Source: Salinispira sp. (GTDB taxonomy: Bacteria > Spirochaetota > Spirochaetia > DSM-27196 > Salinispiraceae). From it: a DNA stretch of 64,000 nt. The DNA lies in the NCBI GenBank assembly GCA_965602015.1, contig OZ271918.1:2528001-2592000 (forward strand). Reading direction: 5' to 3'. Shown in pieces: positions 23,238 through 37,315 of the stretch (positions are counted from its first letter, which is position 1; each line of letters begins with the position of its first letter). The translations under genes were made by a program, and so were the position numbers. The notes beneath the pieces were generated by a model. The model ran no database searches. It was not told the DNA's origin and worked only from the letters and a program-made list of their open reading frames with translations.

Positions 23238-24290
23238 ATGAGAATATCCGAGGCAGAGCTGGTCACAATTGAGAAAAAAAAGCCCTCATACCCCATCGGA
23301 GCCCGCCTGGGAGAATATCTGAACGAGTACGGCAGGCTCTTTTCCCAACCCCTATACTATGAGGAGCTCAGGGATTTCAGCGAGCAGATCCCCCTCTACG
23401 ATGCCGAAGGCATAGACAGCTACTGGCAGACTGTGCTGTACGGCCCGGCGGAACGGAGCGTTCTCGAAGACCGTTTGCGGCAGGTGTATGCCGAATTAAA
23501 AATGGAGGGCAACCGCTCCTTTCTCAAGCATCTCTACATAGACCGCATTGATTACTGCGAGTTCGGCAATTCCCAGCCGTTCAGAATCAGAGTGATGAAC
23601 CGCTACAATGACAACCACGATTACTACTATGTGAAAAAAGCCGATTCAAGCCGGATTTACGGACTCGAGCTTGAACACATACTCTCCCCGAACAGGATCA
23701 ATATCCTGGTCTACGGCGACACCCTCGTCGAAGAGCATATCGCCGGCATACCGGGGGATTATTTTATCAAGCGGCAATTGGCCGAAGACCGGAACATCAA
23801 TAAAATCAGGGTTTCAAAGGAGTTCGTGAAATTTTCCGAGCGCTGTTTTGTCAAGCTCCTGGGGGATATGCGCAGCTACAACTACGTGCTGGTCCTCACA
23901 CAGGATTTTGACGCCCAGCAGTATCGGGTGCGGGCCATCGATTTCGACCGCCAGTGTCACGAGGGTAACCTAAAAGTCTACATGCCCCAGTTCTACCGGG
24001 AAAACCAGCCGGTGGTTGAGATGGTCTGGGATTCCCTTCCGGCGGAAACCATTCGGCAGTACCAGTCGGAGGAACGGTCTCTTATGAGGCGCCGGGCCCA
24101 ATCCGCCCGTTTGCGGCTGGAAGATCTGTTCGCCGCCATGTCACAGGACCCGATAGCGCCCCAGGAAAACGTCGATGAACTGGGGATGCAGCTTGGGGAG
24201 TATCACCGGGATCGGGCCTTCGCCCGCTGCGCGTCTATGGGAGATCTGACAAGAATGCATTTGTTTGAAATGCTGGAAAAACGGGATTAA
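23238..24290 (+). CDS. Conserved hypothetical protein, probable atypical (HipA/PI3K-like) kinase fold
   Basis: Gly loop FGNSQPF, YVKK, E in LELEH, LGDMRSYN, AIDFD in kinase-like order. Confidence 0.65.
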   Translation: MRISEAELVTIEKKKPSYPIGARLGEYLNEYGRLFSQPLYYEELRDFSEQIPLYDAEGIDSYWQTVLYGPAERSVLEDRLRQVYAELKMEGNRSFLKHLYIDRIDYCEFGNSQPFRIRVMNRYNDNHDYYYVKKADSSRIYGLELEHILSPNRINILVYGDTLVEEHIAGIPGDYFIKRQLAEDRNINKIRVSKEFVKFSERCFVKLLGDMRSYNYVLVLTQDFDAQQYRVRAIDFDRQCHEGNLKVYMPQFYRENQPVVEMVWDSLPAETIRQYQSEERSLMRRRAQSARLRLEDLFAAMSQDPIAPQENVDELGMQLGEYHRDRAFARCASMGDLTRMHLFEMLEKRD

Positions 24291-28216: not shown

Positions 28217-29468
28217 AGTGCCCCCAAAACAGCTGATCGAATCAACATAACTCTTTTGCCAGTAGTCTTCTATGACACGATTACCAGTTCATAGGAGATT
28301 ACCATGGCATTTCACCCCCGTTTCTGTCCGTACTCGGACTGCTCTCAGCATCATCGCGACAAAGCATCAAGCCGGTGCTGGTTTGTCCGAAACGGCCACT
28401 ATCACTGCCGCCGCCTCGGTTCTTCACAGCGCTATCGCTGTAAGCATTGCCGTCGATACTTCTGCGAAAGCGCGTTTCACCTCGATTATCGCGCACATCA
28501 TCGCCTCGATTACCGGCGCATCTTCTCTTCGATCAATTCGGCCTCCGGCATCCGCGACATTGCCCGGGAGTTTTATGTCACCGACAAGGTCATTCTCAAT
28601 CGGCTGAGCCGATTGTCCCGTCAGGCAATCGCTGCCATGGCCGAGTTATTGAATGATCATACAATCGATGAGGATATCGCAGTTGATGGGTTTGAAAGCT
28701 TTGTGTATAGCCAATACTGGCCGAACAACTTCACCCTCGCGGTAGGTTCCGACAGCCAGGTTGTCTATGCGTGCGACTATGCGCAGATGCGGCGCAAAGG
28801 GCGGATGACCCCCGCACAAAAGCGCCGGCGCGATGAGCTCAATCGCCGGTATCCTATTGCAGGGGGACAAATTGCGCGATCTTTCCAGGATGTGATAAAC
28901 ACCATTCTTCCCCGGTGGAAGGCCTATTCATCGAAGAAGCCATGCTATCTCTTGAGCGATGAAAAACTCGAATACCGCCGTGAGCTGTTCGCTCACCGGG
29001 ATTGGGCGGCGTTGGAAAATGCAGGGAAGGTACTCCATCACCGAACCTCATCGAGGGTGGTCAGGACCACTGAAAACCCCCTGTTTCCGGTGAATTACCT
29101 GGACCGGGAGATACGAAAGGATCAATCCTGTCATGTCCGCCAGAGCGTGCAGTGGTCAAAATCGGTGAACAACAGCATGGAGCGGATGATGATCTACATC
29201 GCCTATCATAACCTGCTCAAGCCGTACCGGATAAACGGACGAAACGATATCAGCCATGGTGAGGTTGCCGGGTTTGACCGAAAGCGGGTACTCACGTTGG
29301 CAAAAAGGATGTTTACACAGCGGGCCTTCGTTCATCATCTGGTGCTGGACATCAGCCAATGGAAGACCTGGCACCGGATCTGGAAGACACCGGTGAGTGC
29401 GCTGAAGATCGATCTTCCCGATTATGCGGTGGCCTGAGGAGCGGGAAATCAGCTGTTTTGGGGGCACT
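28217..29468 (+). mobile_element. Insertion sequence, ~1.25 kb, 21-22 bp terminal inverted repeats
   Basis: AGTGCCCCCAAAACAGCTGAT at 28217 and its exact reverse complement ending at 29468 flank a single transposase-like ORF; no TSD seen. Confidence 0.9.
28304..29437 (+). CDS. Transposase, IS1/IS1595-like (Zn ribbon, HTH, DD-E/N core)
   Basis: CP..C...QRYRCKHC zinc ribbon; GIRDIAR HTH; acidic motifs AVDGFES, LSDEK, and LFPVNYLDREIR; RBS AGGAG. Confidence 0.8.
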   Translation: MAFHPRFCPYSDCSQHHRDKASSRCWFVRNGHYHCRRLGSSQRYRCKHCRRYFCESAFHLDYRAHHRLDYRRIFSSINSASGIRDIAREFYVTDKVILNRLSRLSRQAIAAMAELLNDHTIDEDIAVDGFESFVYSQYWPNNFTLAVGSDSQVVYACDYAQMRRKGRMTPAQKRRRDELNRRYPIAGGQIARSFQDVINTILPRWKAYSSKKPCYLLSDEKLEYRRELFAHRDWAALENAGKVLHHRTSSRVVRTTENPLFPVNYLDREIRKDQSCHVRQSVQWSKSVNNSMERMMIYIAYHNLLKPYRINGRNDISHGEVAGFDRKRVLTLAKRMFTQRAFVHHLVLDISQWKTWHRIWKTPVSALKIDLPDYAVA

Positions 29469-29477
29469 TCAAAAGCC

Positions 29478-31835: not shown

Positions 31836-32105
31836 TCACAAGCCGCAATCCCTTCGGTCATCCATTATCCTGATAGCCTGCTCGGGAAAAAGCATATCCA
31901 TTCGCCGGCTGTGTTCGCTGATAAATTCCTTCTCGGGTTCCCGGGAAACCCGAAACCAGACCCGGTAAAGATGGGGAACATTGTCTGCATTGGGGCAACG
32001 GGGAAGCCGCTCGCCGGCCTCCATACTTACCACCCTTCCGCAATCAAGACACTGATAGTACCCGCTGCTCACCGATGTGTGACTGTGAAAAAGCATGGAT
32101 TTCAT
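31836..32105 (-). CDS. Small zinc-ribbon protein
   Basis: RBS GGAGG; G.YQCLDCG...LPRCP motif. Confidence 0.7.
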   Translation of the reverse strand: MKSMLFHSHTSVSSGYYQCLDCGRVVSMEAGERLPRCPNADNVPHLYRVWFRVSREPEKEFISEHSRRMDMLFPEQAIRIMDDRRDCGL

Positions 32106-32149: not shown

Positions 32150-32218
32150 TCTATGGCGAATTCTAGCTATTTTGGGGTCGATTATCCATTATCTCTATAG
32201 CAACTTCTAGCTATTTTG
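32150..32218. promoter_or_regulatory. Two 25-bp direct repeats 44 bp apart, each with an ATAGC-N8-GCTAT dyad; putative operator pair
   Basis: TCTATGGCGAATTCTAGCTATTTTG (32150) vs TCTATAGCAACTTCTAGCTATTTTG (32194), 22/25 identical. Confidence 0.75.
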
Positions 32219-32287
32219 AACCCCGACCCGCCACCTCATTATATAGAAGGTGTATTATCTGGATAGAATGATTACGGGAGGAAAACC

Positions 32288-32893
32288 ATGAACGAATCAT
32301 CCCTTCACTTAACTGACAGCCTGGCGAACCTGGAAGAACTGGATTCGCGGCACCAGGCCGATAACTATGAGGCGCCGGATCTCTATATCTGGCATCAGCT
32401 GGTGGACAGGCTGGTAGTACTGTTCAGACTCTCGGCAGAGGAAGAGCGGCGGATCAGAATCAATCAACTGCTTCGCATGCTGAGCCTGCTCCCCCGCTTC
32501 GCCGGATGCAAAAATCCCGAAGGTACGGGGCTGTTAATGGCCTGCACCTACATTGCTGAGCGCCGGGTCGCCCGGGACCTCTTTGCCCATAAACCGGAGA
32601 ATGACGACGACGTACTGAGCCGTCTGGAACCCTTTTCCCGGCTGCTCGAAGGCGGGGACCCTGAAATCATCGAAAAAGGGCTCAACCTTGCAGCCCTCAC
32701 AATGATAAAGGACTATGCCGCCGATGCCGACGATGACCAGTCCAAAGGCAAGTACAACCCCGTGGCGCAAAAACGCTGGGACTGGCGCAAAATTGCCGCA
32801 AGCATCATCCGCCGGAACGATGAAATTACCCATCCGGTAATCGACGGGATTTATGGGCCGGATATAGCCTTGAAGAGCTGGTGGGTTATATAA
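32288..32893 (+). CDS. Hypothetical protein with Asp-rich motif (DYAADADDDQSKGKYNP) and C-terminal WW; possible prenyltransferase/peptide-signal precursor
   Basis: RBS GGAGG; 201 aa; ORF well supported, function is inference. Confidence 0.75.
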   Translation: MNESSLHLTDSLANLEELDSRHQADNYEAPDLYIWHQLVDRLVVLFRLSAEEERRIRINQLLRMLSLLPRFAGCKNPEGTGLLMACTYIAERRVARDLFAHKPENDDDVLSRLEPFSRLLEGGDPEIIEKGLNLAALTMIKDYAADADDDQSKGKYNPVAQKRWDWRKIAASIIRRNDEITHPVIDGIYGPDIALKSWWVI

Positions 32894-32914
32894 GTATCAT
32901 TATATAATCCAGCA

Positions 32915-33694
32915 ATGGAGAAACGCGTAAACTGGCTTTTCATTTTTTTTGCAGCATCTGTCGGCGTTGTTAACACAATAATAGCTTTAATTCGTGGAAG
33001 CGGGGATGTAGCTGCCCTGAATGATTCAGCGATTATTATACCCGTTATTGGTACTGTGCTTTTTATGACGATCCAGCGTGCGAAACCGAAGTATGTCCGC
33101 ATTGCCCATACTGTGTTTTTATCGATTGTTGCAAGCATTGCAATTCTCGATGATTATTCATCGGTTTTCGGCCTCGGTTTCGCGCTCATTGCCCTGTATC
33201 TGGCGCAGAAATACGGCTATTTCGTTCGAAACACCATCGTCAAATCCGTAATCTCGTTAATCGCCATAGTCATTTTTGTTGAGATATCTGCTATTGCAGA
33301 AAGCGCCACCGGCGCGGGCCTGGACGTAGCCCTCTTTGTCTTCTTCTTTTTCGCGATTTTTTATTTCGGGGACCGGGAGACCTTCCTGCGCTACAAGGAA
33401 CAGGAGGAGGCCCTCAAGGAACGGGTTCGCAAGGAGTACGGTTCGGGGGTTGACCTGAAAGAGATCGGCTTCACTGAGCGGGAAATCGAGGTGGGGGCCG
33501 TCCTCTGCCAAACCCTGGGGACCGACAAGGAAATCGCCTACGACCTCAATATCTCGAAAAACACGGTTATAAACCATCTTCGTTCCATGCGGGACAAGGC
33601 CGACGTGCGGGACCGTCAGCATCTTATCGAGGCCATCCGCCGCTACTACATAACCCGGGATGACGCTGCGGAAACCGACACCGAAAATATGTAA
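32915..33694 (+). CDS. Membrane-bound LuxR-family regulator (5-6 TM plus C-terminal HTH)
   Basis: Hydrophobic N-terminal ~150 aa; FTEREIEV...TDKEIA.DLNIS.NTV..HL...K LuxR HTH; no receiver domain. Confidence 0.85.
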   Translation: MEKRVNWLFIFFAASVGVVNTIIALIRGSGDVAALNDSAIIIPVIGTVLFMTIQRAKPKYVRIAHTVFLSIVASIAILDDYSSVFGLGFALIALYLAQKYGYFVRNTIVKSVISLIAIVIFVEISAIAESATGAGLDVALFVFFFFAIFYFGDRETFLRYKEQEEALKERVRKEYGSGVDLKEIGFTEREIEVGAVLCQTLGTDKEIAYDLNISKNTVINHLRSMRDKADVRDRQHLIEAIRRYYITRDDAAETDTENM

Positions 33695-33818
33695 ATAACT
33701 TTGTAACAGCATACCCCGGGCGATGTTATTTAGCGAACGGATTGAATTTCCGTCCGCTGCGGGATGCCCCATATCCGGCGAATCCGGAGGCTTGGACCGC
33801 AGCACACAAGGAGGGCTC

Positions 33819-35069
33819 ATGTCCCGTCCCACCACGCTGCTGCTGGCAGCAATTGTTTCCGTCATTGCGTTGGCTTCCTGCAGAACCGCACCAGAAATCG
33901 TTGAATTCGATCCGGACCAGGAACTGGTGCCCGCGGTGGTAAGTCCCCAGGCGCCCGATGAAAGCATCGCTCCGGGAGTCACCATCCAAAGCGCCCAGGA
34001 TCAGCTAGTATTCACCTACGAGAATCCCATTCTCACGGTTCTCAGCAACGCCTTTTCGCCCAACGGCGACGGCTATCGGGACGAACTGGGTTTTTCCGTC
34101 GCGGTCCCCAGCACCGAAGGTTTCGCATCCTGGGAACTGATACTGCTCAGCGAGGGTCACCGGGAGATTTTTAAGATCCGCGGAAACCAGCTTATTCCCG
34201 GCAGCTTCAGCTGGGACGGAAACAGCCCCACCGGCCGACCGGTGGCCGACGGCTGGTACTACGGCCGCCTTCATGTCAACTACGAAAGCGGACAGCGGCT
34301 CACCGCCCACTCCTCGGAATTCCTGCTGTGGAGGGAGGGACCCCGGGCCCGTATCTCGGTTCCCGACGGATACTTCTCGCCTGACGGGGACGGAGTGAAC
34401 GACACGATTACCCTGAGCCTTGCGGTAGAGAATCGCGACGACATTGTGGCATATCAGGTAGCCCTGTTTAACAGCCGGGACAGCCTTTTCGAGCTCTACA
34501 GCGCACCGGGAGCGCCTCCTGAAGAATTCACCTGGGATGGTACAAACCGGCATGGAGAAACCGTTGAAAGCGCAGAAGATTACCGGGTGGAACTCCGGCT
34601 CTGGGATGACCTGGGCAACGTGAGCGTCACCGAAGCGACCATACCCGTCGATATTCTGGTGTACCGCGACGGCGATCAGATAAAGATCCGCATTTCTGCG
34701 ATCAACTTTCTGCCCTTCTCGGCGAACTACATCGATCTGCCCCCGGAAGTCCGCAGTAAAAATCTGCAGACCCTCGACCGGCTCGCGGAAATCCTCAACC
34801 GTTTCCCCGGTTACGGAATCGACATTCAGGGCCATGCGGTGCAGATTTACTGGAACGATCCGGTGCGTGGAGCCCGGGAGCAGTCGGAGGTACTTATTCC
34901 TCTGAGCAGTGCCAGGGCGGAGGCTGTGCGGGAAGCTCTGGTCGCCCGGGGTATTGCCGGCGGCCGAATGACTACTTCCGGCGTGGGTGCCATGCGTCCC
35001 TTGGTGCCTAACAGCGATCTGGAAAACCGCTGGATGAACCGTCGGGTTGAATTCATTCTCGAGAGGTAG
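33819..35069 (+). CDS. Lipoprotein with two FlgD-Ig-like repeats and OmpA domain (short paralog of 3694-6876)
   Basis: RBS AGGAGG; lipobox LASC; FSPNGDG, FSPDGDG; IQGH...LS..RA...NRRVEFILER. Confidence 0.88.
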   Translation: MSRPTTLLLAAIVSVIALASCRTAPEIVEFDPDQELVPAVVSPQAPDESIAPGVTIQSAQDQLVFTYENPILTVLSNAFSPNGDGYRDELGFSVAVPSTEGFASWELILLSEGHREIFKIRGNQLIPGSFSWDGNSPTGRPVADGWYYGRLHVNYESGQRLTAHSSEFLLWREGPRARISVPDGYFSPDGDGVNDTITLSLAVENRDDIVAYQVALFNSRDSLFELYSAPGAPPEEFTWDGTNRHGETVESAEDYRVELRLWDDLGNVSVTEATIPVDILVYRDGDQIKIRISAINFLPFSANYIDLPPEVRSKNLQTLDRLAEILNRFPGYGIDIQGHAVQIYWNDPVRGAREQSEVLIPLSSARAEAVREALVARGIAGGRMTTSGVGAMRPLVPNSDLENRWMNRRVEFILER

Positions 35070-35159: not shown

Positions 35160-36329
35160 TCAATCATTCAAAAAAGCAAAGCGGTTGCTGTCAGTGTTGA
35201 GCCCGGCAATTGCCGAGGGAGACAGGGTGAATGTAATCCCTTTGGGATCGCCATTGAGAAAGGAATCTGCCTCGCTGCCGTTGCTTTCATAGCCTCCGGA
35301 GCTGGTATAGGCGATATTGTTATCCAGCCCCGTCACAAAAAAGAGATCCGGGTTGTTTTCCACCAGCGCCGGATCATTGGCGGCAGCAACATCGAGGGCC
35401 GACCCCAAGCCGGATCCTGACGTTATTGTACCCGCAGTCTGACCCAAGATAGCGTCCAGGTCCCCTGGATTTACCCCTTCAATCCACTCAAAGAGAATAT
35501 CGAGGTAGCTGCTTTTTATGTCCATGCTCTCGTTTACATTACCCGAGACGATGACGTCCGCTTTTGGAAAATACAGCGCCACCTCCGAGCGTTCGCCGTC
35601 CGGGCTGCCCAGGGCCTTGAACATGTACACATGCTCCGCCTCGTAGGGAACCTCAAAATCCGAATTGCCGGGAATCACGTAGTGGTAAGCCACCCCGCCC
35701 TCAAACTCGTACTGGCCTTCGGCGTTGCGTGTGCCTTCGAAATACAAGGCCTGGGCTTCGGTTTGTCCGCTGCTGTCGAGGTTGTTGATGTTGGCATAAA
35801 CCGTCAAAACAGGAGAGGCGCCGGTTTCGTCATAGCTGATAAATATTCGGTCGAGCTGCCGGTCGGCTGCTTCTGGCTCATGGTAGATAATGTTTCCCTT
35901 GACTTCGCCGGGCTGATAGTTGAGCTGCATGTAGCGCTGGCCTGCGGAAGTGCGCCACTCTATGCGCTTGGGAAGTGACCGGGCGTCGGAGGTGCTGATA
36001 ACCACGCTTTCACCGTTGTTGTAGTCGAAGGTGCCCTCGTTGGGAATAAAATTTTCATTGATTCGCCGGATGATTTCGTCAACCGCATCGAGGGCGGTTT
36101 CCGCAAGTCTCAGGGACGCCCTAAACGGCTCGAAAACATCCTCCGGGCTCTCACCGACGCTTCGGGAGGTAATACTGGCCTGAGAGTTTCCCGCAGTGAG
36201 GGCCGGCGGAATGGAAATGCTCCGCTCTGAGATATCTCCCCCGGAAAGGTCGGGCAAGAGCGCCTGACAGGAGCCAAGCAGTATCAAAATGGCAGGAAAG
36301 ATTAGTGCGGTTTTTACAGTCTGTTTCAT
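35160..36329 (-). CDS. Hypothetical lipoprotein
   Basis: RBS GGAGG before MKQTVKTALIFPAILILLGSC (lipobox). Confidence 0.8.
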   Translation of the reverse strand: MKQTVKTALIFPAILILLGSCQALLPDLSGGDISERSISIPPALTAGNSQASITSRSVGESPEDVFEPFRASLRLAETALDAVDEIIRRINENFIPNEGTFDYNNGESVVISTSDARSLPKRIEWRTSAGQRYMQLNYQPGEVKGNIIYHEPEAADRQLDRIFISYDETGASPVLTVYANINNLDSSGQTEAQALYFEGTRNAEGQYEFEGGVAYHYVIPGNSDFEVPYEAEHVYMFKALGSPDGERSEVALYFPKADVIVSGNVNESMDIKSSYLDILFEWIEGVNPGDLDAILGQTAGTITSGSGLGSALDVAAANDPALVENNPDLFFVTGLDNNIAYTSSGGYESNGSEADSFLNGDPKGITFTLSPSAIAGLNTDSNRFAFLND

Positions 36330-36424
36330 ATCGCCCTCCGGTCTTTCATTAATATATATAGTACTCCCGTTGATGAGAAAAAACAGGCTTAACAGATGCA
36401 AAGTAGACGGGTACAATCCCCGGC

Positions 36425-37315
36425 ATGGAAGAGAAGGAAGCCGCCGGCAAACAGGGCCCTGGCAGCAATGACAACAATGGCGTCGATGCGGGAGAGCGGG
36501 ACACCATTTATGCAGACCCGGTGAATCCCGTGCCCCCATTTCGCTTCGACAGAAAGGTGGCCCGGGTGTTCCCCGACATGATCAAGCGCTCGGTTCCGGG
36601 CTATCAGGACATCATCGAAATGATCGGGCTTTTCGCACGGCATTTCGTTCAGGCCGGGAGCATCTGCTATGACCTGGGAGCCAGCCTGGGAGCCGCAACC
36701 CTGGCAATGAGACGGAATATCATTGCGGAGGATTGCCGGATTATCGCCGTGGACAATAGCAGGGACATGCTCGCTCGCTGCGCCGAGAACCTGGCCTGGG
36801 ATCAGTCCAGAACCCCGGTTGATACCCTGCTCTCAGATCTGGAAGATGTCCGCATTACAAACGCCGGCATGGTGGTTTTGAATTTTACCCTTCAGTTCAT
36901 TGCGCCGGAGCGCCGGCAGAGAATTATTGATAACATTTACCGGGGTCTGCGCCCCGGCGGCATTCTTATCCTCTCGGAGAAGCTCAACTACGGGGATAAT
37001 CCGGTTCAGCAGGAGATAATGACCGATCTGCACCTGGATTTTAAGAGGATGAACGGCTACAGCGACCTGGAAATCAGCCAGAAACGGCAAAGCCTTGAAA
37101 ATGTGCTCATTTCGAACAGCCACAGCGAACTGACGACCATGTTCCGCAACGCGGGATTTAACGAATATTTCGAGTGGTTCCGGTTTTTTACCTTCAGTTC
37201 AATGTTTGCCCGGAAGGGAAATGAACCGCCGCATACCGCGACGGGAGACCGGCCAGAAGACCGACGAGAATACCGGGCGGAACATCAGGCGGATACCCCC
37301 GCGGAAGAACAATGA
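36425..37315 (+). CDS. cmoA: Carboxy-SAM synthase
   Basis: F.FD.KVA.VFPDMI.RSVPGY, YDLG.SLGA, LNFTLQF, NGYS.LEISQKR..LEN. Confidence 0.93.
   Translation: MEEKEAAGKQGPGSNDNNGVDAGERDTIYADPVNPVPPFRFDRKVARVFPDMIKRSVPGYQDIIEMIGLFARHFVQAGSICYDLGASLGAATLAMRRNIIAEDCRIIAVDNSRDMLARCAENLAWDQSRTPVDTLLSDLEDVRITNAGMVVLNFTLQFIAPERRQRIIDNIYRGLRPGGILILSEKLNYGDNPVQQEIMTDLHLDFKRMNGYSDLEISQKRQSLENVLISNSHSELTTMFRNAGFNEYFEWFRFFTFSSMFARKGNEPPHTATGDRPEDRREYRAEHQADTPAEEQ

Follow-up and report, generated by a model that had tools for sequence, protein, structure and literature searches.

The window analysed here, a stretch of 64,000 nucleotides from the Salinispira sp. contig OZ271918.1, carries a pair of open reading frames (ORFs), ORF A and ORF B, each present as a single copy in the 3.87-Mb genome and separated by only 21 nt (Table 1). 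All of the features that a sequence-only reading had described for this pair were found in the sequence. ORF B indeed bears a multi-helix membrane N-terminus fused directly to a LuxR-type helix-turn-helix (HTH; Pfam GerE, residues 186-238, E 1.3e-8), and a Pfam search detected neither a kinase nor a receiver domain in it. The twin dyad repeats described upstream of ORF A are 25-nt repeats at 32150 and 32194 that share 88% identity, lie 44 nt apart and enclose one 18-bp dyad each. Together, these elements apparently comprise a widespread, unannotated and previously undescribed two-gene signalling module of spirochaetes, and the ORF A/B pair is likely a new cell-to-cell signalling system.

Table 1. 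Positions of the module's features in the window
Feature	Position	Strand	Basis or remark
Box 1, distal 18-bp dyad, predicted operator of ORF B	32153..32170	.	Within 25-nt direct repeat; kept in L004
Box 2, proximal 18-bp dyad, 44 nt from box 1	32197..32214	.	17/18 identical in L004
ORF A ribosome-binding site, GGGAGG	32276..32281	+	Read off the sequence
ORF A, 201 aa (amino acids), predicted isoprenoid-synthase-fold miniature and candidate synthase of the signal	32288..32893	+	Family, model and fold searches
Acidic motif D142-x3-D146-x3-D150-x3-GKYNP158, predicted Mg/diphosphate site	32711..32761	+	Column conservation, local profile match
C-terminal tail W198-W199-V-I-stop; W199 candidate prenyl acceptor	32879..32893	+	W in the 199 column in 148/150
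Hairpin over the ORF A stop and the stretch before the ORF B start	32879..32914	+	15-nt arms, 87% complementary, -16.0 kcal/mol
ORF B, 259 aa, membrane sensor domain of six helices and LuxR HTH	32915..33694	+	GerE match, model

ORF A has no match in Pfam, NCBIfam or the PDB sequences, and word-based searches recovered five homologues. A profile built from four sequences placed the family in 21 of 61 genomes (its own and 60 relatives), and one built from 22 sequences placed it in 13 of 401 genomes sampled across the phylum; the latter profile also yielded 360 representatives at 50% identity, the best 150 of which span 86-227 aa. When one genome per bacterial and archaeal species was scanned with a sequence pattern, 45 loci came back, 44 titled Spirochaetota and one an uncultured bacterium, but as the pattern was built from a spirochaete subgroup, distant members outside the spirochaetes could be missed. 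Conservation was read from an alignment, A3, with 150 rows: ORF A itself, 20 locus translations and 129 database proteins (125 of 147 new identifiers, with short fragments and three others left out, and four earlier hits). Asp150 is invariant in A3, followed by Arg112, Asn157 and Trp199 (148 rows each), Pro69 and Pro158 (146 each), Gly123 (141), Asp146 (132), Asp105 (117) and His101 (103); the internal positions 35 and 164 are each occupied by Trp in 110 rows.

The structure model of ORF A (predicted local distance difference test, pLDDT, 92.6) has an ordered C-terminal tail, and fold searches with this family returned isoprenoid-synthase-like matches almost uniformly (49/50 and 50/50), from which a miniature isoprenoid-synthase-like fold is predicted. 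ORF A contains LTMIKDYAADADDDQSKGKYNP, and the best local match of its acidic motif, over 22 columns and not significant (E 0.08), is to the second motif in a set of 29 squalene/phytoene synthases. Asp146 and Asp150 of this motif, with Arg112, are predicted to bind Mg/diphosphate. The likeness to ComQ first claimed for ORF A thus holds for the predicted fold and fails for the catalytic features. [quoted passage not shown] The NDxxx/GDxxx of the pseudo-second aspartate-rich motif (pseudo-SARM), with its essential second Asp, is likewise replaced, positions 142-143 being DY, GY or DH and [NG]DxxD occurring in 12/150, while position 139, where ComQ has a Gln upstream of the SARM, is Met in 117/150 and Gln in 4/150; the register of both comparisons was set by hand. 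Perhaps ORF A does not use prenyl substrates at all and its fold is a generic helical likeness or a relic, the protein serving ORF B as an accessory partner in ligand binding or regulation, with the Trp as a docking residue. This is improbable in view of the near-uniform fold matches, the enzyme-like pattern formed by invariant Asp150 with Asn157, Arg112, Asp146, His101 and Asp105, and the agreement of the motif register with a known Mg-diphosphate motif.

The C-terminus of ORF A reads GPDIALKSWWVI (...LKSWWVI), placing Trp198 at -4 and Trp199 at -3. The expectation that homologues would share a near-terminal Trp with variable flanks was borne out: the last four residues include a Trp in 126 of 150 homologues as compared to 138 of 2774 long ORFs of the genome (5%), and the other flanking positions vary in A3. 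An alignment-free count finds Trp within the last 12 residues in 142/150. The aligned Trp is followed by 0, 1, 2 or 3 residues in 11, 15, 67 and 26 of 148 sequences, respectively (119 in total), and by at least 4 in 29. Position 198 is Phe, Trp or Tyr in 114/148, whereas position 199 is never Phe or Tyr. Similar placements are known from pheromone precursors: ComX is modified at the third or fourth residue from its end, and the ComQ of RO-E-2 accepts the second to fourth (PMC5331326, in excerpt); the PalX core terminates in RFFW (PMC10853753, in excerpt); and StheX carries Trp at -3 and -2 (bioRxiv 10.64898/2026.08.29.745113, in excerpt).

These features of the tail bear on whether Trp199 is a substrate. 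Rather than being modified, the terminal aromatic pair could line the pocket of an autoinducer synthase with multiple turnover, whose product, a small lipophilic terpenoid or a prenylated indole or free tryptophan, would enter membranes and bind ORF B as CAI-1 binds CqsS. This main alternative is given a somewhat lower chance than self-prenylation, since there is no RY pair or lid after the Trp, the chain ending within 0-3 residues in the 119 sequences counted above, and since position 199 excludes the Phe and Tyr that position 198 freely admits; moreover, positions can be matched only to within about two residues, the comparison being based on range end-points and not on residue pairs.

Several tails depart from the common form. 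Tails with two Trp residues at a spacing of 8-9, the latter of them at -2, occur in the loci L010, L013, L067 and L071, which form a clade (support 89) with a tail extension, and in P0007, P0016 and P0020; such tails could represent a doubly modified or a shifted core peptide. L022 and L023 have tail extensions without the second Trp. Internally deleted or 5'-truncated A genes that keep the Trp tail stand immediately before an intact receptor gene at L095:1336-1788, L097:3-275, L096 and L108:2811-3002. The frame at L108 has 42 codons, a plausible ribosome site and an ATG, and encodes only the last helices and the tail. These shortened genes are probably products of decay, or possibly stand-alone precursors.

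The N-terminal domain of ORF B (about residues 2-161) is modelled as six long helices (pLDDT 92.6). Its homologues occur with both LuxR and kinase partners, and the outputs are exchangeable, being an HTH, a HisKA_2/HWE kinase or another kinase across the loci. The recurrent linkage to membrane sensors that had been anticipated was observed, a receptor gene directly following the A gene in 66 of 72 loci. The best match of the receptor model is the six-helix anchor of an adenylyl cyclase, with a Z-score below the safe level for helical bundles, which likewise weighs against a small-molecule ligand. Of the 37 receptor-positive genomes, 16 have receptors without an intact A gene, and additional receptor copies accompany a single A gene in L039, L067, L071 and L080; L080 and G055 (C1 2942084-2945574) each have three receptor genes in tandem. 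The clusters beside one A gene suggest an expansion for the signals of other groups. This distribution fits an outside signal better than it fits an ORF A that is self-prenylated and left uncut, the whole lipidated protein docking on ORF B from the cytoplasm to report the cell's own prenyl-diphosphate pool instead of density. Such an intracellular role draws on the same evidence for Trp199 as the acceptor, on the ordered tail of the model and on the sequence showing no signal peptide and the loci no linked protease or exporter, yet it appears very unlikely.

Upstream of the pair, the dyads are shared with relatives. Among the nearest LuxR-type loci, L004 has twin boxes 43 nt apart, and L006 and L007 have one related box each; a matrix derived from these two loci only ranked box 1 sixth and box 2 76th among 3.87 million positions. 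Another LuxR clade carries a dyad of its own, TGTAGAC-N4-GTCTACA, which is twinned in L069 and L076 (43 and 42 nt) and single in L028, L070 and L083. Strong upstream dyads precede 8 of 23 LuxR-type loci compared to 3 of 42 others (5/115 and 12/210 in shuffled sequences), counts in which kin are not independent. LuxR-type ComA acts as a dimer on inverted repeats (PMC4797271, in excerpt), and because of this precedent and the conservation of the dyads in relatives, ORF B likely autoregulates through the twin boxes, to which it is predicted to bind. A genome scan gave only weak enrichment over controls and does not support a wider dyad regulon. Other close matches lie at G000 C1 2964556, 1761408, 847072, 3214194 and 2865315; one precedes a pair of genes resembling Fur/PerR and Dps, one a chemoreceptor and the others predicted lipoproteins, as named by eye. 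The hairpin between the two genes may tune the translation of ORF B.

From these elements a tentative scheme can be drawn, one to which slightly less than an even chance is given, in which Trp199 is self-prenylated and the resulting lipopeptide is released and sensed by ORF B. ORF A, as a predicted miniature prenyltransferase, would attach an isoprenyl group to Trp199 on its own chain in a single turnover, the donor being geranyl or farnesyl diphosphate from housekeeping synthases, two of which are encoded in this genome. General machinery encoded elsewhere would then cleave and export the modified tail, and the six-helix domain of ORF B would bind the released pheromone within the membrane. 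A dimer of ORF B on the twin dyads would drive the operon, and through this positive feedback the loop would report on cell density. Should this hold, and it may do so with a probability not far below one half, the Spirochaetota would have a phylum-wide quorum-sensing system whose pheromone precursor doubles as the prenyltransferase that modifies it, a single-motif isoprenoid-synthase miniature of 170-200 aa acting in cis, with a new six-helix receptor domain. Fusion of this domain to a LuxR HTH in the present genome could then, with a similar reserve, make the two genes a peptide quorum circuit that is complete.

A number of observations weigh against self-prenylation and release. Beyond what the remainder of ORF A accounts for, tail distance does not follow receptor distance over 57 gene pairs (partial r 0.08, other windows reaching up to 0.40), and among close pairs the tail gives r 0.33 compared to up to 0.56 for other windows. 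Twelve chosen close pairs differ at 76/175 positions in the tail, 284/1480 in the core and 77/190 in helix 166-181 (p 0.6). The order of the tail in the model, the lack of a protease or exporter linked to the loci and the ComQ catalytic features missing from the family also count on this side. The sequence-only interpretation is partly supported. A signal synthase-receptor pair with feedback, whether the signal is a prenylated peptide or a small molecule, is altogether quite probable.

A literature search, mostly of the main text of open papers, returned no description of the pair, of ComQ/ComX-type signalling in spirochaetes, of a fused prenyltransferase precursor or of a self-prenylating protein. 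If self-prenylation is correct, several families of spirochaetes have a signalling channel private to them on which receptor-only genomes are able to listen in, a fused enzyme-substrate route leads to lipopeptide signals, and a six-helix receptor is wired directly to DNA binding; the minimal isoprenoid-synthase scaffold would also attract interest as a self-lipidating tag that is genetically encoded. With a small-molecule product, ORF A would still be a new autoinducer synthase, yielding a terpenoid.

Other genes of the window are noted here for completeness. A zinc-ribbon-like ORF of 88-89 aa (31836-32105, -) diverges from the module and has the upstream region in common with it. It could also be dyad-controlled because of this shared region and of a homologue (59% over 78 aa) in the same position at L004. 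Close downstream of ORF B lies an OmpA-family protein with CHU_C/FlgD-like immunoglobulin repeats (33723-35069, +), the neighbour being different in the related loci examined. A 377-aa ORF (28304-29437, +), Cys-rich in its N-terminal region and without any Pfam family that passes the cut-off, lies in a 1.26-kb element (28217-29474) that has 12 genome copies of 96-100% identity and is apparently an active insertion sequence outside Pfam coverage. The long ORFs at 23238-24290 (+) and 35160-36539 (-) match no Pfam family at E<=1, and the former continues directly into a hybrid kinase and GGDEF response regulator, identified by eye.

Among known systems, CqsA-CqsS likewise pairs a synthase, in that case a pyridoxal phosphate enzyme, with a six-helix receptor for a lipophilic signal, the ligand being only proposed for ORF B. 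The likeness of the ORF B domain to CqsS would be one of six-helix layout and not of demonstrated homology. In the borosins, a methyltransferase carries out backbone N-methylation, and to our knowledge neither prenylation nor a linked receptor occurs there. Their enzyme and C-terminal core share one chain (PMC7878506, in excerpt), as is proposed for ORF A, whose architecture is compatible with borosin-like fused autocatalytic peptides made by the ribosome and modified after translation (RiPPs). With class I terpene cyclases (CotB2, pentalenene synthase), squalene/phytoene synthases, MoeN5 and Ord1, the last a precedent for the farnesylation of free Trp (PMC12510300, in excerpt), ORF A shares the overall predicted fold, an acidic motif spaced i/i+4/i+8 and a Trp close to where the fold ends. 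Unlike these enzymes, it is about 100 residues shorter and has one acidic motif instead of two and no RY pair. The DDxxD, NSE and WxxxxxRY of class I terpene cyclases are accordingly incomplete in A3, and the squalene/phytoene synthase family PF00494 is represented by nothing beyond the short local match described above.

The closest parallels are ComQXPA of Bacillus, PalQXP of Paenibacillus alvei and StheQX of Sphaerobacter thermophilus. A 2014 census found comQXPA in Firmicutes and in no other phylum, as far as the excerpted text states (PMC4008528), the Com pathway is located in bacilli and clostridia (PMC8895600, in excerpt), and prenyl-Trp pheromones are known, in the excerpts at hand, from Firmicutes and one member of the Chloroflexi. 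Unlike in ComQXPA, the Trp of the spirochaete module resides on the enzyme with no separate precursor gene, as the 21-nt gap and the 66 of 72 directly following receptors illustrate; the family proteins have 170-200 aa, whereas StheQ is numbered past residue 260 in the excerpt of its description; and the receptor is built on another six-helix domain, which in this genome joins the HTH directly. As in these systems, the gene of a protein with an isoprenoid-synthase fold, predicted for ORF A, precedes that of a multi-pass sensor, and a Trp with variable flanks stands 1-4 residues from a C-terminus; further shared are the absence of a linked protease and a LuxR-type HTH output that would act on dyad sites.
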